Origin: Spirochaetota bacterium
Lineage (GTDB): Bacteria > Spirochaetota > UBA4802 > UBA5550
NCBI GenBank assembly: GCA_003246895.1
Contig: QKCL01000067.1
Coordinates: 17,995 to 81,994 of the forward strand
Length of the DNA stretch: 64,000 nucleotides
Reading direction: 5' to 3'
A program made the position numbers and the translations under genes. The notes beneath the pieces were generated by a model. That model ran no database searches and was not told the DNA's origin. It worked only from the letters and a program-made list of their open reading frames with translations. This document shows positions 3,041-33,308 of this stretch, piece after piece (within the stretch, counting starts at the first letter, position 1; each line of letters begins with the position of its first letter).

Positions 3041-4003
3041 ATGGTTAGTTATAAGGATCTTGGTCTGGTTAACTCCAGAGAGCTGTTTAAAAAAGCTGTA
3101 AACGGCGGTTATGCCATTCCGGCATATAACTTTAACAACATGGAACAGCTGCAGGCAATTATTCAGGCCTGTGTGGAGACAAAATCTCCGGTAATCCTGC
3201 AGGTTTCTGCCGGGGCGAGGAAGTATGCAAATCAGACACTTCTCCGGTACATGGCTGAAGGAGCTGTTGCATACGCAAAAGAACTCGGCTTTGAGATTCC
3301 AATTGTGCTCCACCTTGACCATGGGGATTCATTGGACCTGTGCAAAAGCTGTATTGAAACTGGATTCTCATCGGTAATGATAGACGGGTCACACCACTCA
3401 TATGAAGACAATGTGCGCCTGACAAAGGAAGTTGTTGAGTATGCTCATAAATATGATGTTACAGTTGAGGGAGAACTGGGAGTTCTTGCCGGAGTGGAGG
3501 ATGAAGTTTCTGCGGATAAGCATGTTTTTACACAGCCCGATGAGGTGGAGGACTTTGTTAACAGAACCGGAGTGGACAGCCTGGCGATTGCAATCGGCAC
3601 ATCCCATGGTGCCTATAAGTTCAAGCCGGGTTCTGACCCGAAGATCAGACTGGATATACTTTCTGAAATTGAAAAAAGAATTCCAGGATTCCCCATAGTT
3701 CTTCATGGTTCATCATCTGTTCCGCAGGATCTGGTAGCGATTATAAACAGCAATGGAGGAAAACTTGATGATGCAATAGGTATACCCGAAGAACAGCTGA
3801 GACTCGCATCAAAATCCGCAGTGTGCAAGATCAACATTGACTCTGACGGAAGGCTTGCCATGACAGCAGCCGTAAGAAAGGTTCTTGCAGAAAATCCGGG
3901 TGAATTTGACCCAAGAAAATATCTCGGGCCTGCCAGGGATTCACTTAAGGCCCTTTATATGCATAAAAACAGCAATGTGCTAGGGTCAAGCGGGAAGGCC
4001 TGA
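3041..4003 (+). CDS. fba: Class II fructose-1,6-bisphosphate aldolase
   Basis: HLDHG, SVMIDGS, VEGELG, AIGTSHG, VLHGSS, KINID motifs; ATG 3041 after GAGGG. Confidence 0.95.
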   Translation: MVSYKDLGLVNSRELFKKAVNGGYAIPAYNFNNMEQLQAIIQACVETKSPVILQVSAGARKYANQTLLRYMAEGAVAYAKELGFEIPIVLHLDHGDSLDLCKSCIETGFSSVMIDGSHHSYEDNVRLTKEVVEYAHKYDVTVEGELGVLAGVEDEVSADKHVFTQPDEVEDFVNRTGVDSLAIAIGTSHGAYKFKPGSDPKIRLDILSEIEKRIPGFPIVLHGSSSVPQDLVAIINSNGGKLDDAIGIPEEQLRLASKSAVCKINIDSDGRLAMTAAVRKVLAENPGEFDPRKYLGPARDSLKALYMHKNSNVLGSSGKA

Positions 4004-26419: not shown

Positions 26420-27919
26420 TTGGGTGTGTCAGGGGTGTGTCAGAGAAACTGTGTAAATATTCAGTGGGGGACGATAATAATATTACTGGAGGTTTTCCGG
26501 AAGACCTGGGCCGGAGCAGCACTAGCTGGAGCAGCCGGGTCAGTAGCAGGTGGCATAAAGATGGGCGGAATGTATCTGTCAATGAAGAACCGTATAGGAA
26601 GATTCGCAACCGGCATACAGAATGATTTTAATGATTTTACAGATGATATGGGCAGGGCAGGAAGTGCAGTGGCATCAGCAGCCAGCACTGCATGGAAAGG
26701 AATAACAAGTGCAGAAAGTGCAGCGTGGACAGGTGTAAAGAATTTCGGACAGAGTGTTAAGAACAAGGTTGCATACGGAGTTTATGGTACAGATACAGAT
26801 TCTGATGTATTAAATGCAAAATTCCAGGAAATGTGGAACTCAGATGCAGTAAGTAAGGTAGTAACGGGTTATGGTGCATCTTCAATGAGTTATGGTAAAT
26901 ATCTTGAAACTAATCTGAAAATTACTACAGACAGTAATGGTAATACGGTACTTGCAACTAAAAAAGCAACAGCCTTTGGAGATAGAGAAAATGAAGATGA
27001 TACTTCGGGCATGAGTGAACAACAATTTGAAGAAGCTGATTCAAAACAATCATTTTTAGGAAAGTTCTTTCACAATAAAACAATAATGTGGAAAAATGCA
27101 TGGAGTACAACAGTCCGAGCATCAGAAGAGGGGCTTTCTGGATATGAAAATATAACTGAACGAGAGTTATTCGGTAATGATAGTAGTGGAGAGGCAGCTT
27201 TTGATAAAGTTGTGGGTAGTCTTAAAGACAGTCTTTTGCAAGAAGCCAAGGGTGACTACATGGATAAGGTTCTCAATTCATGGGAAAGTACAGGTGGTTT
27301 TTTAAATGGTGACAATTTGTTGCAAGCAGCAGCATTAGGAGGAGCATATCTTTACTTTAGTGAAGGTGCAGGTTATACTCATACATTCAAAAATGGAATA
27401 ATTGCAGGTGGAGAATTTGGCTGGGACAACAGTGACCCTAAAAATAACTGTTCAGGAAAGGTAATTATTGGCGGTGAAAATAGCGATGTAACAGCTAAGG
27501 CTACATTTGAAGCTGGAAAGGAAATGGATAATGATTCTGGAAAAATTAATAACCGATTTGATAGTAATGTTGAAATTCAGACAAAAGATTTTGGTGGTAA
27601 ATATGAATTTGAAATTGATACAAGTAAAAATAGCACTACAATAACCAACTCATTGTCTGGCAAGTACCAGATTAATAAAAATATCAGTATCTATGGAGGG
27701 GGAAGTTATTCCAGCCAGTCTGATGGTTCAAATTCATGGAATATAAATTCGGGATGGCAATATAGCGGTCAATACAGAGTCAATGCTGACATTGGTTTTG
27801 GTAAAAATTACAATAATAGCAATGAATATTCTTTGAAGTGGAGTTTTAGTACAAAAATAAATATTTTCGGAGATAAAAAGACAGTAGATAAATTAAAAAA
27901 GATAGGAAAAAATAATTAA
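26420..27919 (+). CDS. Headless polymorphic-toxin-like protein (Gly/Ala-rich helices, then a beta-rich C-terminal domain)
   Basis: First ~25 codons read through the IS-like end; then AGAALAGAAGSVAGG and AGSAVASAASTAW; AT-rich C-terminus of alternating beta strands; followed by a MORN gene. Confidence 0.55.
   Translation: MGVSGVCQRNCVNIQWGTIIILLEVFRKTWAGAALAGAAGSVAGGIKMGGMYLSMKNRIGRFATGIQNDFNDFTDDMGRAGSAVASAASTAWKGITSAESAAWTGVKNFGQSVKNKVAYGVYGTDTDSDVLNAKFQEMWNSDAVSKVVTGYGASSMSYGKYLETNLKITTDSNGNTVLATKKATAFGDRENEDDTSGMSEQQFEEADSKQSFLGKFFHNKTIMWKNAWSTTVRASEEGLSGYENITERELFGNDSSGEAAFDKVVGSLKDSLLQEAKGDYMDKVLNSWESTGGFLNGDNLLQAAALGGAYLYFSEGAGYTHTFKNGIIAGGEFGWDNSDPKNNCSGKVIIGGENSDVTAKATFEAGKEMDNDSGKINNRFDSNVEIQTKDFGGKYEFEIDTSKNSTTITNSLSGKYQINKNISIYGGGSYSSQSDGSNSWNINSGWQYSGQYRVNADIGFGKNYNNSNEYSLKWSFSTKINIFGDKKTVDKLKKIGKNN
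26433..26460 (+). mobile_element. Isolated IS256-family-like terminal inverted repeat, no transposase
   Basis: GGGTGTGTCAGAGAAACTGTGTAAAT fits the GGGnnTGTCAG..TGTGT pattern I recall for IS256-family ends; its first 11 bp are tandemly duplicated at 26422-26432. Confidence 0.55.
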
Positions 27920-27960
27920 TAAGGTTTAGCGTAATTTAAATATTATAAGGATTAAAGAAA

Positions 27961-28692
27961 ATGAAAATTGCAGTGAATATTCTATTTAGCGTAATGTTTT
28001 TAGTTTCAAGTATTAGCTATGCGAAAGAAAACTATGTTCAGGATATGAAATACAGAGGTGGCAAGTATACCGGAGAAGTGAAGAATGGCCTGCCGCAGGG
28101 GAGGGGGACATTTATAGATAATGATGGCAAATATGAAGGTGAATTTTATAAAGGCAATTTTCAGGGGAAGGGTAAGATTTTTTTTAAAAATGGAAGCACT
28201 TATGAAGGTGAGTTTAAGAATGATAAAAAAGATGGAAAAGGTGTATTTATATGGATAGAGAATGGTAAATTTTCAATGAAATATATTGGTCAATATAAAA
28301 ATGAATATAGGCATGGCAAAGGTATGTATATAATGGCCAATGGTGTAAAATATGAAGGTGAGTTTAAGAATGGGAAAGAACATGGGAAAGGTATCTATAT
28401 ATGGGAAAATGGGGAGAAATATGAAGGCGAGTATAAGAATGGAAAGAGACATGGTAAAGGAATTTATTATTGGCCATCAGGGAAAAAATATGTTGGTGAA
28501 TATTTTAATGGAGCAAGGCATGGGAATGGTACAGAAATATTGCCTGATGGGAAAAAATTTGTTGGACACTTTGAAAATGGCAGAGCTACCGGTTATGGAA
28601 CCATGTATGATAAAAATGGTAAAATACTTGCCCAGGGTTATTGGAGAAATTATAAATATATAGGGAAAGAAAAACCGAAAGATTTAGAGTAA
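27961..28692 (+). CDS. Exported MORN-repeat protein (candidate immunity protein)
   Basis: Signal peptide; about 7-8 repeats of YEGEFKNGK.HGKG.Y.W.NG. Confidence 0.88.
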   Translation: MKIAVNILFSVMFLVSSISYAKENYVQDMKYRGGKYTGEVKNGLPQGRGTFIDNDGKYEGEFYKGNFQGKGKIFFKNGSTYEGEFKNDKKDGKGVFIWIENGKFSMKYIGQYKNEYRHGKGMYIMANGVKYEGEFKNGKEHGKGIYIWENGEKYEGEYKNGKRHGKGIYYWPSGKKYVGEYFNGARHGNGTEILPDGKKFVGHFENGRATGYGTMYDKNGKILAQGYWRNYKYIGKEKPKDLE

Positions 28693-28737
28693 TTCTATTT
28701 TTTAGGAATTAATTGAAATAAATAAAGGAAACCCTCA

Positions 28738-29160
28738 ATGATTAAGAAAAAAGTAGATATAAAAACAGAAACAAACACAGAGGCACCAACCATACCAGAA
28801 GTGTACAGCAACGCAGTGCTAACAAACATGACACCATACGAGTTTGAAATAACCCTTGGACTTGGAAGCAGCAACTACGAGGGTGTTAAACCTGTGGTTA
28901 ATGTGAGAATGAGCCCTCAGTTTGCCAAAGGCCGACCCATCACTTCCTGTGATGTGGTCGGCATCAACCTCATCGCTTTCTCAGGATGAGATGATGCAAA
29001 GCCGTTACAGGATGTAACAATTGGTTTTGCCTGAGAACGTGAGTTCAGCAACCTGCTTCAACAGAACGTAAAGATGTTTGAAGAGAGGTTCCGGTATATG
29101 AGGAGTAGATGCTTGTTTTACGGAACAAGTTCTTTGAAAACAGTTCAGGATTACACCAAG
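28738..29160 (+). pseudogene. DUF3467-like gene interrupted by a 111-nt insertion
   Basis: PEVYSNA..TPYEFEITL..VNVRMSPQFAK (to 28929) resumes in frame at 29041 as EFSNLLQQNVKMFEERF; the insert carries two in-frame TGA codons. Confidence 0.7.
28930..29040. mobile_element. 111-nt structured insertion (MITE/REP-like, or RNA element)
   Basis: Almost fully paired; see findings. Confidence 0.6.
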
Positions 29161-29251
29161 CCGATTTAACACGAGGTTGAATCGGATGTTGCCGAGGACA
29201 AGCATGGATGCGTCCGCAGGCAGAAATAATATTTTTATGAAACAGTAAGGC

Positions 29252-29321
29252 AAGCCGACCCAGGGCGTCTGACTGGTCGGCTTTTTTGTGCAGCTTTTTG
29301 GGTCGTTGCCAAAAAGCTGCA
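29252..29321 (+). terminator. Terminator-like hairpin with U-tract, then a perfect 13-bp hairpin
   Basis: AAGCCGAC..GTCGGCTTTTTT; TGCAGCTTTTTGG-N7-CCAAAAAGCTGCA. Confidence 0.7.
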
Positions 29322-29423
29322 GAACGAATATAGAAATATTCAGAATTGATATAATTGAATGAAAATCAGAATTTGTCTTAAATAGTTCCTGATAAAAAAG
29401 ATTAAATTAAAATTTAAAAAGTT

Positions 29424-29662
29424 ACATGCAACATCGCGTGAGTGATGGAGCCGATATGCCGAAGGCATACAAGGCGAGAGCGCGACCCGCCGGGAAACAA
29501 ACCAGTTTGAGAGAAACAAGAGAATGAAGGTACTCATTCCAGGTGCGCAGACATTGTGCGCTTAAACAATTGGGAAAGGGACACGCCCAACCTTTACTCA
29601 GGTCTGCAGGTCGTCGATTCTATTTTGCCACTTCCTGTGGCAGAATCGACATCAACCTCATC
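29424..29662. ncRNA. Candidate structured non-coding element of unknown class
   Basis: GC-rich non-coding block with at least six consecutive stems, right after AT-rich DNA. Confidence 0.4.
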
Positions 29663-29666
29663 CTGA

Positions 29667-30347
29667 TATAGCTATGTAGATTTAGAGTCCCAGTGGCTAA
29701 ACAGAAACATAGAAGAGGTCTTTGAAAAGAACGGATTCTTTGAGGAACATACAGAGGTAGAGTTCGACCGGCTTGGCAGGAAGTTCGGAGAGTATTGCCA
29801 GTACTGGATGGCCGGGGAAGCCCTGAAAGCCGGAGCCTTCTACAGTAAGCCCATTTTCCCCAATGGACCGAATATGTTTCAGACAGCGGCCATAGCAGCG
29901 AGTTTATCTGGGCAGGCATGGCTTGCAGAGGCAATAAGTGTAGCAACAAGCGCAATACAGGTAGCAGACGGGACTATGTCGTGGAAGCAGGCAGCATTTC
30001 AGGTTGGAGTAAGTGTGGCAACATCTGCAATAGGTGCAGGAGCAGCCGGCTTTGAGAGCAAGGCCATGCAGAACGCATCAAGTATGATGTTTAGAAAGAT
30101 GCTTGGCAGTGACGAGAAGATGAGCTGGGCCACAGTGGCAAATACAGACCCCATAGGTTAAATGGCCAGTAAGTTTTTCAATGGATTTGTAACACCTGCG
30201 AAGATATCACCGGAAATATATTTTACACTATCGACAGGAACAAGAGATTTCTCACTTTCCTTCGACATGACAGGGGAACCATACTATGCGCCCGCCTTCA
30301 ACATTGAAGCCGACAGGCATGGATGCCTTATGCAAAATTATTCATAA
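29667..30347 (+). pseudogene. Internal fragment of a large Ala/Gly-rich toxin-like protein
   Basis: Frame open from 29667 without a start; TAA at 30159-30161; same frame continues MASKFFNGFVT. Confidence 0.5.
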
Positions 30348-30835
30348 CATCCTGTTATGCTTTTTGCAGGCAGTCATCGTGTCTGCACTGTCGCCGATTT
30401 CAGGATGAAAAAGAGGCGGCTGGCACGGCCGAATCATTTATATTATCCACCTGAAAATTTAATTACTGAATTCCTGACCTGTAATTTTCTGTAAATAGGG
30501 ATATCCTTTGGTTCTGATAAAGGTTATTGTGCCCCTTTTCAGGGCTGGGGGTTCTCCTTAACTGTGTCATTAACTTTATGAAATTCCTACGAAACAAGGT
30601 AAATATCATATATTTACATATGAAATTTGGGGGTACTAGAAGAACTGATAGACTGTGCAGCGTCTGACTCTGAGCTTAAAGATCAAAAAATGCAAAGATA
30701 AAAAATCTCAGCAAACATTAAGTGCAAAAAAAAGTTGATTTTTTGCCCAAATTGCTTTTAATATATGAATGCAAAAGTTATGTGAAATTACATGCCCGAC
30801 TGAGTCCATGTATCCATCACATCTAAGAGGTAATC

Positions 30836-32440
30836 ATGCTTAAAAGAATTAAATTTTTATCTGTTTTAATATTCCTTATAATTTCATTTGCGAATTGCTC
30901 AAAGCAACAGAACGTCAATTTTATATTTATTACCGGCAGTAAAGTAAAACTGATGAGTGAACCATCGTCAAAATCAAAAAGACTGCAATATGTTAAATGT
31001 AATGAAATAATTAGCCATATTGAAGAAGTTAAGGTTGATAATGACCGCTGGTTTAAAGTTAAAATAGGAAAGTTAACAGGTTATATTGAAAACAGCAGAG
31101 AAGATAAGGAGGAGATTTCTGTATTCTATAAAAACGTATCAAAAGAATGCGGTGTCGCTCTGACCGATCCCGTAGAAGTTTACAGTATTCTTAATGCAAC
31201 GACTGCCCCATTATTTAAAATAAATAGAGGTAATTATTTTTATATTGAAGCCCAGGAAGGTGATGGAGATAGCTGGTTATATATAAAAACACAAAGCGGA
31301 AAAACAGGCTTCATCCTTGGTTCTCAAATTCTGAGAGGTGATTTAAAAGCTGTTCAGACCATAAGTAAAAGTAAACTTGAAAAAGTCGATGCATGGGTTC
31401 AGGTATCTGTTGATAAGCCCAAATTCTTAAATATTCCCGGCCCTTCGGGTAGGTTGGTAACAAAGAAAGATCCGGCCAAATGTACTCACAGGCTGGAACT
31501 GTATCCGAAGAAAAATGGATTTGCTCCTGTATCCGAAAAAATTTCAATTAATGGTATCAACTATTTTCATGTAGAAAGGATGTTTAGTTCGGGTTGTGGT
31601 TGTGAAGGTGGGATAAATGCATGGATATCTGAAAAAGATGTACTGTTTATTCCTGACTTTTTTGCATATTCCCTGAAACAGAATCAAACACATCTTGATA
31701 AGAATTTATTGGAACTCCTGAATAGAGAAATAGCAGGTAATTTAAACGCTGCTACAGTGAATATAAAGAAAGTGAATCTGGGTGAAATAATGCCCGAGGC
31801 AGAATTTTTTAAGGTTCGTTGTGAAAAGGGTGATCAGACTGCATTTGGAGATTCTGATACAGTTGCTTATAATTATTTTCTGGTCGCTAAAAGGAATAAT
31901 AAATATTTAGTTCTCCATTCAATGAAAGTATCTGATATTGATAAAGATGACTGTATGAATTCTTCTCAAACCCGTAATTACTGGAATGAAGAGTTGTCTT
32001 ATCTGATAATAAGAGACATTGATCAGGATAATAAGTTTGAATTGATTCAGCTTGACTCAGGGGAGGCTGATTTAAGTTTTATTGTTTATCGCTTTGTTGA
32101 TGGCAAATATAAAAAAATAATTCAGTTTGGAGTTGGTGGTTTAAGATGTGTTGCGTTTGATGATATTCGTAAAATGGATTTCAGACACATAGTGTTCTTT
32201 AAAAACTGTTACGGACCAAAGGGGAAGAAAACAGAATGGATGCCTGTAGTCAAACTTGATCGTCCTCCATTTGACAAAAAATATGAAAATAATGAAATTC
32301 GTGTCCTGGAATTCAAAGACGGTGAATATGTGGAAATAGATGCTGATGGTTCTGGTCTTGATTTCAAGAAGTCATACAATGAATCCCTGCCATGTACGGA
32401 TTGTCCGAATACTGAAAATTTTGCATGTAAAGCTAAATGA
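30836..32440 (+). CDS. Lipoprotein with SH3b-like domains
   Basis: Lipobox FANC; DRWFKVKIGKLTGYI and SWLYIKTQSGKTGFI repeats; AGAGG RBS. Confidence 0.65.
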   Translation: MLKRIKFLSVLIFLIISFANCSKQQNVNFIFITGSKVKLMSEPSSKSKRLQYVKCNEIISHIEEVKVDNDRWFKVKIGKLTGYIENSREDKEEISVFYKNVSKECGVALTDPVEVYSILNATTAPLFKINRGNYFYIEAQEGDGDSWLYIKTQSGKTGFILGSQILRGDLKAVQTISKSKLEKVDAWVQVSVDKPKFLNIPGPSGRLVTKKDPAKCTHRLELYPKKNGFAPVSEKISINGINYFHVERMFSSGCGCEGGINAWISEKDVLFIPDFFAYSLKQNQTHLDKNLLELLNREIAGNLNAATVNIKKVNLGEIMPEAEFFKVRCEKGDQTAFGDSDTVAYNYFLVAKRNNKYLVLHSMKVSDIDKDDCMNSSQTRNYWNEELSYLIIRDIDQDNKFELIQLDSGEADLSFIVYRFVDGKYKKIIQFGVGGLRCVAFDDIRKMDFRHIVFFKNCYGPKGKKTEWMPVVKLDRPPFDKKYENNEIRVLEFKDGEYVEIDADGSGLDFKKSYNESLPCTDCPNTENFACKAK

Positions 32441-32791
32441 TTCTTGAAGTTATAATGATATCGTTTAGCTTGCGGAGTTTTCTCTGTATCTCAACAGAAC
32501 ATTTTAATTACTGAATTCCGGTGACTGAATATTCTGCAATAACTGTATTGCTTTATCAGTAGATTTTACCATGAAACTAAGACGAAACAATAGAAAAAAA
32601 ATTCTTAAATCCATTAGTGTTAATGCAGTTTTTTATCCTGTCCACCTGTGGCAGTTCTTTGTTTTTTAATCGGGACAGGATACTGTCATTGCATAATCTA
32701 TATTTCTTAAACCTCCTTCAAAAATAACTTGGTTTTTTTATCTCATATGAAAATTATGACTCCTGTTGTAGAATAAACCGGATGGTGATAT

Positions 32792-33286
32792 ATGGAGTTT
32801 TCAATTAATTTCACAATAGCTGCTGTGGTTATCTTTGTTGGTACCATGGTCGTATTTTCCTATATTTTCAAGACAACCGATCTTGAAAATATAGATCTGC
32901 TGCCTGGAGAGGAAATACTTTTTGAGGAAAAAGGTGTGAAGGTTGAACATGGCGGAGTAATAAAGGGGGCAGTGTTTTTAAACTGCCTTGTAAGAGTGAC
33001 AAACATGAGGCTTATCATTGCACAAAAAGGAATCTTCAGAGAATCTTATTTCATAAGACATGTCATCGATTATTCTGTTCCTGAAAATTCTGCCGATAAA
33101 AGCAAGAAAAATTATTTTTCAGCTGTTGTAGACAGGGAAAGGATACGCCTTGAGGATGAACCCGGAAAGAAGGGCAGAACTTTTGTGATCGTTGAAATAC
33201 CATATTCCTCGGGAATGAGCGGTCAGTATATAAGATTTATCACTTCACGGGTAGATGAATTTAAAAATCAGTTTATATACGGGTGA
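32792..33286 (+). CDS. Membrane-anchored hypothetical protein (PH/GRAM-like)
   Basis: N-terminal TM helix; LLPGEEILFEE, VRVTNMRLIIAQ. Confidence 0.6.
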   Translation: MEFSINFTIAAVVIFVGTMVVFSYIFKTTDLENIDLLPGEEILFEEKGVKVEHGGVIKGAVFLNCLVRVTNMRLIIAQKGIFRESYFIRHVIDYSVPENSADKSKKNYFSAVVDRERIRLEDEPGKKGRTFVIVEIPYSSGMSGQYIRFITSRVDEFKNQFIYG

Positions 33287-33308
33287 GGCATAACCCCACC
33301 CGTATATA
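33274..33308. terminator. 12-bp hairpin between convergent genes
   Basis: TATATACGGGTG-N11-CACCCGTATATA. Confidence 0.65.

Follow-up and report, generated by a model that had tools for sequence, protein, structure and literature searches.

Palindromes resembling CsrA sites in an uncultured spirochaete probably belong to a previously undescribed mobile hairpin repeat

In a stretch of 64,000 nucleotides (nt) from a Spirochaetota genome (assembly GCA_003246895.1, contig QKCL01000067.1, positions 17,995 to 81,994; referred to here as the window), an earlier note described a cluster of small palindromes with GGA or TCC in their loops and proposed either a sponge RNA for CsrA or, from the mixed orientation, a DNA-level family like the repetitive extragenic palindromes (REPs). 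We found that these palindromes are very probably the hairpin loops of a previously undescribed, non-autonomous mobile hairpin repeat of an uncultured Leptospirales-like spirochaete clade, comparable to REPs and to MITEs (miniature transposable elements with inverted repeats). The repeat is a multi-copy unit that conserves its structure, inserts without target-site duplication, can nest in itself, and decays.

The insertion was seen in a gene for a DUF3467 protein (28738-29169, plus strand). In translation, the open reading frame (ORF) at 28738-28989 continues in frame past two TGA codons, and unedited it had no Pfam match. Excision of positions 28930-29040 gives a product that matches Pfam DUF3467 over its full length at 33.2 bits (threshold, 25). 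Intact homologues of 92 amino acids were found, and 85 DUF3467 homologues, mostly of 85 to 97 residues, run uninterrupted over the junction (...SPQFAKEFSNLL...). When the contig of the closest homologue (locus L044; 94% identity, intact) was aligned with the window, a clean 111-nt gap fell at exactly 28930-29040, with the insertion junctions CAGTTTGCAAAG|GAGTTCAGC, and this alignment of a filled and an empty site showed no target-site duplication longer than 1 nt. The 111 nt consist of a 55-nt copy of the repeat, A+, with a complete 56-nt copy, A-, nested inside it. A deletion in the L044 lineage is an unlikely source of the difference, because all 85 of the other homologues are without the 111 nt. 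The insertion of A+ and A- without target duplication inactivated the DUF3467 gene, which is a pseudogene because of the insertion and an additional frameshift after ...EERF. Recoding of TGA in this frame was considered and rejected, since neighbouring genes end in TGA and the homologue is without the whole 111 nt.

The unit itself is recognizable from two segments, 28941-28974 and 29629-29662, which have in common CACTTCCTGTG, then a stem of differing sequence, and then CATCAACCTCATC. Its core of about 55 to 64 nt is a bulged hairpin with the loop C-N-UCCUG, followed by the tail CAUCAACCUCAUCCUGAGAACG, which contains a 4-bp mini-hairpin. In the consensus, the outer stem P2a (e.g., CCAACGC/GCGUUGG, in the orientation modelled) is joined by a U-rich 5' bulge, (A/U)UUC, to the inner stem P2b (GGCAC/GUGCC, loop A-UCC-U), and there follow a linker, CAUCAAC, the mini-hairpin CUCA-UCC-UGAG, and a final AACG(C/U). 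The conserved unit is GC-rich and has no promoter-like part.

A covariance model of the 64-nt core (CM R1), run unfiltered over the whole window, gave four significant matches, all within 28928-30383 and in both orientations, and no other match with an E value below 0.5. Copy A+ (model match 28928-28998, plus strand, 34.9 bits, E 2e-10) is interrupted. Its 5' part (28930-28974) holds the hairpin P2, GGCCGACC-CAUCAC-UUCC-UGUGAUG-UGGUCGGC, plus CATCAACCTCATC, with exact loop and tail matches, and the 3' end of its tail (CTGAGAACGT, 29031-29040, plus strand), also in the gap of the L044 alignment, completes the 111-nt insertion with 28930-29030. Copy A- (28975-29030, minus strand; model match 29033-28972, 49.7 bits, E 1e-15) is oriented the other way and sits between CTCATC and CTGAG, within the loop of the A+ mini-hairpin. 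Copy B+ (29610-29675, plus strand; 51.2 bits, E 3e-16) has the outer stem GUCGAUUCU / AGAAUCGAC, the tip GCCAC-UUCC-UGUGGC, and CATCAACCTCATCCTGA. Copy C+ (30329-30383, plus strand; 18.6 bits, E 1.4e-4) is partial and consists of the P2 hairpin only, GCAAAA...CAUAAC-AUCC-UGUUAUG...UUUUGC, its tail having been lost.

These copies account for most of the palindromes. Each one listed in the earlier note (28938, 28979, 29004, 29202, 29626, 29658, 30315, 30343, 30398, and 32674) was found at its place. They are real and not independent of one another, as six are the two hairpin loops of the four copies: 28938, the plus-strand GGA loops 28979 and 29004 (from A-), 29626 and 29658 (from B+), and 30343 (from C+). 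Three others, 29202, 30315, and 30398, resemble, by eye, the tips or tails of additional minus-strand copies that have decayed, so that there may be up to three relics. The possible relic F- (29165-29215, minus strand) has a GCAUCCAUGC tip and then AUUCAACCUCGUG, is not significant in the covariance model, includes palindrome 29202, and is 71% complementary to copy B at 29173-29193. The possible relic E- (30285-30335, minus strand; GGCAUCCAUGCCUGUCGGCUUCAA), recognized by eye only, would stand head-to-head with C+ and corresponds to palindrome 30315; the reported match of 15 of 17 positions between 29197-29213 in F- and 30312-30328 in E- holds. The weak candidate D- (30395-30440, minus strand), with a tail-like UCAUCCUGAAAUCG, corresponds to palindrome 30398, and the model matches its mini-hairpin alone (7.2 bits, E 1.6). 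The 10-bp inverted repeat reported at 32634/32673 is present; neither it nor palindrome 32674 matched the covariance model of the repeat.

The palindromes are also clustered. The 64 kb contain 20 perfect stems of 5 bp or more around a GGA or TCC loop, and 8 of these 20 lie within 28900-30450, where 0.48 would be expected. With stems of at least 4 bp, this 1551-nt interval again holds 8, and the maximum in any such interval of 100 shuffles was 6, so the cluster pointed out earlier is beyond chance when checked against shuffled controls of the 64 kb.

Base pairing is conserved over the sequence of the stems. By RNAalifold and pair counts, both sides had changed in 12 of the 17 pairs of P2, and the covariation score was reached by none of 500 shuffles; 88.6% of cells were paired, compared with 32 to 37% after the partners had been slid. 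In most genomes, the core is flanked by subfamily-specific complementary arms that extend the unit to 95 to 150 nt: AAG(C/T)CCCCCC ... GGGGGGCTT, CCCCCTCTCC-loop-GGGAGAGG ... GGGGGTGAGGGC, or CCTGCA ... TGCAGG. Perfectly complementary flanks of at least 6 nt occur in 49 of 81 copies elsewhere versus 24% in shuffled controls, and the 3' arm GG(A/G)TGAGG is complementary to CCTCATCC of the tail. The copies in the window have no complementary arms. Because A+ and A- inserted without arms, the minimal mobile unit seems to be the hairpin plus the tail. In about 12% of copies, the P2b tip is replaced by a longer stem capped with GAAA, AAAA, UUUC, or CGUA. Furthermore, the tips GATGAAATC and GATTTCATC are reverse complements of each other, the hairpin tip being flipped relative to the tail, and a flipped tip was also found in L033. 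These flipped tips point to events on DNA hairpins, which would be a DNA-level signature.

Public genomes were searched with the loop plus the tail and then with the 20-nt tail alone. The tail was found at 42 genome loci, with about 2 expected by chance, and the same hairpin lies upstream at 40 of them. These 40 loci are spread over at least 13 metagenome-assembled genomes (MAGs), which carry the labels Spirochaetota, Spirochaetes, or uncultured Leptospirales and have as many as 8 loci each, and a scan of metagenomes added 74 further contigs with the element. Many copies stand at contig ends, as would be expected if the repeats break assemblies. Tail-only and 5'-truncated copies (L027, L032, and L091), head-to-head doublets (L033 and L075), and tandem copies (L063) were all seen. 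Among 81 non-redundant copies, 71 are intergenic; relative to the copy, both flanking genes are on the opposite strand in 19 cases, convergent in 17, on the same strand in 12, and divergent in 11. The folding energies of sense and antisense hairpins are not different (mean difference 0.15 kcal/mol, p = 0.28), and nothing here speaks for an RNA acting from one strand. The element is multi-copy, intergenic, indifferent to strand, and in places truncated or nested, with a filled and an empty site to compare, which supports the DNA-level, REP-like alternative of the earlier note.

The neighbours of these copies have little in common. When 767 ORFs from 41 loci, each of up to 8 kb, were clustered all against all, no gene family appeared in more than three loci, and because no neighbouring family recurs, we consider the element non-autonomous and not tied to a regulon. 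No transposase was found between inverted copies, where the segments encode a cytochrome-like protein (L027) or RHS fragments (L073). Around the window region, where the surroundings are ordinary metabolic and orphan genes, there was no transposase or integrase either. Neither the tail nor the core matched viral contigs, plasmids, or phages, and literature searches returned no description of such an element in spirochaetes.

Several further observations concern the family. More divergent relatives occur at L044 3064-3127, L030 4080-4165, and L075 783-846; they have the first loop GUCCAUGG, a full second hairpin (GUAC-AUCC-UGUAC or AGCUAC-AUCC-UGUAGC) replaces the tail, and they are the copies most like the Rfam family Bacillaceae-1, at up to 29.9 bits. 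In L030 (4252-4308) and L034 (883-946), which are from different MAGs, a copy lies 70 to 115 nt upstream of apparently orthologous genes on the opposite strand. The two ORFs fall in one BLASTP cluster, and the L030 product starts MKINIIYEDNHLIAAEKPAGI and is RluA-like by eye. One copy of this pair has the standard loop and the other a GAAA-tip variant, and the pair may represent an old shared insertion. In L001, direct repeats of about 40 nt (tggtgaagtt(t/c)taaactagaac...) surround a 240-nt segment containing the element at approximately 2220-2520. Finally, a weak match to the element (23 bits) at L073 1752-1810 lies between two RHS/YD-repeat ORF fragments and is possibly another gene insertion.

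How the copies move can be suggested only tentatively, by analogy with REP/RAYT and IS200/IS605. They may be mobilized in trans by an enzyme, encoded elsewhere, that would recognize the folded hairpin and the tail on single-stranded DNA. A single-strand-DNA reaction of the HUH/Y1 type (REP/RAYT- or IS200/IS605-like) would be the more plausible because the insertion has no target duplication and structure is conserved over stem sequence. The cluster in the window is probably a pile-up of insertions, made of decaying copies in a dispensable, pseudogenised stretch, and not a dedicated RNA gene.

Several points weigh against reading the palindromes as a mobile repeat. A single filled and empty pair was found, and the two inferred targets (AAA|GAG and CAG|GAT) have no clear common motif, unlike those of IS200/IS605. 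No mobilizing enzyme was found among the neighbours in the 41 loci. Arms are present in 49 of 81 copies elsewhere but not in the unit that inserted here, which makes the extent of the mobile unit uncertain. Since the tail was used to search the collections, part of its conservation is a matter of ascertainment, and the gene calls in the loci are crude longest-ORF calls. The loops, too, are more conserved than a plain hairpin needs, reading CAGGA-N-G twice on the reverse strand, which an RNA- or protein-binding function could explain.

This last point bears on CsrA, and the loops do resemble CsrA sites, as noticed earlier. Read on the reverse strand, each of the two loops is CAGGA-N-G, in which N alone varies (forward-strand counts, A43/C5/G8/U8), and the repeat consensus of CsrB is CAGGA(U/A/C)G. 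A reading that combines this with mobility, and that we regard as improbable, is that of a mobile element carrying a pair of CsrB-type hairpins, so that each transposition would plant a site for CsrA, or for another factor binding GGA/UCC loops, in a new transcript. By extension, the Bacillaceae-1 motif would be such mobile DNA and not a conventional small RNA (sRNA) gene.

It is also quite unlikely that the unit is a CsrA module or sponge in its own right. According to this proposal, the functional strand would be the reverse complement, the two CsrB-type hairpins (C-AGGAN-G), about 28 nt apart, would fit one CsrA dimer, and transcribed copies would titrate or recruit CsrA. Besides the match of the loops to the CsrB consensus, it could draw on the fact that in the first 40 copies the GGA sense prevailed 10 to 2 between co-directional genes; however, this bias was gone with 81 copies (19 versus 12). 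The copies in the window lie in both orientations, about 12% of copies persist with the P2b loop replaced by a GNRA-like or other tip, the copies stay clear of ribosome-binding sites, and the unit is not delimited by a conserved promoter or terminator. A regular-expression search of the window and the loci found no csrA, which is uninformative. On the side of this proposal there is also a published parallel, in that the sole Rfam family that scored, Bacillaceae-1, is one whose reverse complement was proposed in 2015 as a CsrA-binding sRNA, an untested idea with the strand admittedly uncertain (PMC4333381).

The dedicated sponge RNA of about 350 nt, similar to CsrB/RsmZ, that the earlier note suggested, with its end at the U-tailed terminator, is very unlikely. 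The stretch (28930-29290) is the 3' part of the DUF3467 pseudogene followed by that gene's own terminator. It had been called GGA-rich on the plus strand, but its density is at background, with 8 GGA where 361-nt windows average 7.2 +/- 3.6. Its 2 or 3 plus-strand GGA hairpins belong to the minus-strand copy nested in the plus-strand copy, and CAGGANG occurs only twice on the plus strand, whereas RsmY/Z and CsrB carry about 7 to 22 GGA sites. No promoter-like site was found at the start of the stretch.

The U-tailed terminator hairpin at its end (29252-29287, plus strand) is present as described. A consensus terminator scan passed over it, its loop being longer than 8 nt, and folding confirmed it at -18.4 kcal/mol. 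Its stem, GCCGACCCA/TGGTCGGC, is identical in the outer stem of A+ (28931-28962) and in the terminator (29254-29281), 323 nt apart. Hairpins of the form GCCGACCCA...TGGTCGGC occur only at these two places in the window, with 0 expected, and the orthologous terminator in L044 has a different stem. Gene conversion between the neighbouring hairpins is one possibility that could explain the common stem.

We consider it highly improbable that the element acts through the UCC strand as a trans- or cis-acting RNA. In this case, it would be an sRNA like Bacillaceae-1 whose two UCCU loops and CCUC tail imitate the anti-Shine-Dalgarno sequence; their pairing partners would be purine-rich ribosome-binding sites or, as a switch, the element's own G-rich arms. 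Such a role would be consistent with all Rfam matches to Bacillaceae-1 falling on the strand of the model's RUCCU loops (19 to 30 bits), with the complementarity of the 3' arm GG(A/G)UGAGG to CCUCAUCC of the tail, and with copies in L002 and L033 that are closely followed, in the same orientation, by a ribosome-binding site. However, all of these scores are under the gathering threshold of 35, there is neither an orientation rule nor a strand asymmetry in wobble pairs, and the copies in the window have no arms. An sRNA gene does not behave like this element either, which has inserted into a coding sequence and occurs nested and truncated.

Still less credible are integron-type attC recombination sites that mark cassette boundaries. 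The element does share imperfect palindromes, conserved structure, and variable stem sequence with attC sites, and in the metagenome contig L090 three units in the same orientation separate short cassettes, including a PIN-type toxin-antitoxin pair. However, the unit ends have no RYYYAAC / GTTRRRY core sites, and by reading, the tail GAGAAC / GTTCTC does not fit. Moreover, nearly all copies are single, in both orientations, and between unrelated housekeeping genes, with only L090 array-like, and there is no integrase near the window region. An attC assignment from the hairpin-plus-tail shape was dropped because there were no core sites and no integrase nearby and the copies are dispersed. A hairpin following the variable region of a diversity-generating retroelement and a fragment of a group II intron were dropped as well, with no reverse transcriptase or integrase nearby and dispersed copies. 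In L090, the three element-containing units are of about 190 nt and lie in one orientation (470-658, 2036-2224, and 3065-3253), separating a 310-amino-acid ORF and a PIN-like pair of 78 and 140 amino acids. The stretches of 200 nt that follow units 2 and 3 agree at 98% identity, and the arrangement is either a cassette-like array or a tandem duplication.

Last, chance palindromes in a GC-richer stretch might be supposed, given that small GGA/TCC palindromes with stems of at least 4 bp are common here (54 in 64 kb versus 38 +/- 6 in shuffles), but this explanation is refuted by the covariance model matches (E values of 1e-10 to 1e-16), by more than 100 related copies elsewhere, and by the 8 clustered hairpins, where no shuffle had more than 6.

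The surroundings of the copies have features of their own. A low-GC stretch of orphan genes (27 to 38% GC) extends from 26700 to 33300 between housekeeping genes and is interrupted at 28.8 to 30.3 kb by a segment of 46 to 51% GC that contains the repeat copies and gene fragments. At 27961-28692 there is a gene for a MORN-repeat protein (7 MORN repeats, Pfam E 5e-45) with DNA repeats of 69-nt periodicity. The ORFs 29667-30161 and 30162-30347 had no Pfam or NCBIfam match; their one similarity, weak and repeat-like, is to the ORF that follows DUF3467 in L044. Direct repeats of 76 to 80% identity (30458-30494 / 32503-32539 and 30578-30597 / 32571-32590) flank the SH3-domain gene at 30836-32440, and the upstream regions of two consecutive genes there look duplicated. 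Immediately beyond the second direct repeat comes the inverted repeat at 32634/32673, which does not belong to the hairpin repeat family.

Taken together, these results remove a false lead, in that 28930-29290 very probably does not hold a first CsrA sponge from a spirochaete, and they define a repeat family, not described before, of an uncultured clade of spirochaetes. They also illustrate how conserved loops, covarying stems, and a nearby terminator can make a mobile repeat look like a regulatory RNA. The demonstrated insertion unit is unusually small (55 to 56 nt) and has neither inverted termini nor a target duplication, which points to a hairpin-recognizing mobilization system. A practical use of the covariance model is to mask such repeats, at which many contigs break, when MAGs are assembled and when sRNAs and CsrA sites are predicted. 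The function of the Bacillaceae-1 motif has been a question since 2010, and there is now a concrete alternative hypothesis for it.

We did not place the element in any named family, because it does not have the defining features of REPs, classical MITEs, or attC sites. Like REPs and REPINs, which are associated with RAYT (a Y1 HUH enzyme), its copies are short, GC-rich, imperfect palindromes that are multi-copy, mostly intergenic, in both orientations, and non-autonomous, and they often form inverted doublets (A+/A- and C+/E- in the window; L033 and L075). Unlike REPs, the element has no GTAG/CGTC at the foot of the hairpin, the 5' foot being preceded by GG/AGG or arm sequence, and it has a conserved 3' tail of 22 nt. 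No RAYT-like gene adjoins the copies in the 41 loci of up to 8 kb, and the copy number appears modest, at about 10 per MAG with the exact tail.

With MITEs (Correia/NEMIS, RUP, and ERIC) and the Rickettsia palindromic elements (RPEs), it has in common structured units of 100 to 150 nt, and most copies elsewhere have complementary terminal arms. RPEs can also land in coding sequence; here, the insertion destroys the frame with two stops. Unlike MITEs, the insertion in the window has no target-site duplication and no terminal inverted repeats, and it is the core that is conserved, not the termini. Like the palindrome-associated transposable elements (PATEs) derived from IS200/IS605, the element has ends defined by hairpins, inserts without duplication, and conserves structure over stem sequence. 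It differs from PATEs in having one main hairpin, no tnpA or tnpB nearby, and, for two events only, no conserved tetra- or pentanucleotide 5' of the inferred insertion points (…CCAAA| and …CTCAG|). On its reverse strand, it resembles CsrB/CsrC/RsmX/Y/Z in CAGGA-N-G pentaloops closed by C-G, two per unit, but those transcripts carry about 7 to 22 sites each, whereas the element occurs as dispersed mobile copies in both orientations with no dedicated promoter or terminator.

Rfam searches of the window and 15 loci at gathering thresholds found tRNAs only. Permissive searches added Bacillaceae-1 alone, below threshold, and nothing from TwoAYGGAY, ribozymes, or riboswitches. A 2010 paper presented the Bacillaceae-1 motif (RF01690) as a probable sRNA (Weinberg et al. 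2010, PMC2864571). The motif scored 27.8 bits with copy B+ and 19.2 bits with copy A- (minus strand) in the window and 23.9 to 29.9 bits in other genomes, in no case reaching the gathering threshold of 35. By the Rfam model and family alignments, both have two hairpins with RUCCU terminal loops, in the same order: the outer stem is followed by a 5' internal loop and an inner stem whose loop is C-(G/A)UCCU-G, and after a short linker comes the second hairpin, whose loop is C-AUCCU-G. The element differs in its subthreshold scores, in its host, which is Spirochaetota and not Bacillaceae, and in its second hairpin, which is 4 bp inside a longer conserved tail. It is, moreover, demonstrably inserted multi-copy DNA, a behaviour that for Bacillaceae-1 is only a hypothesis.

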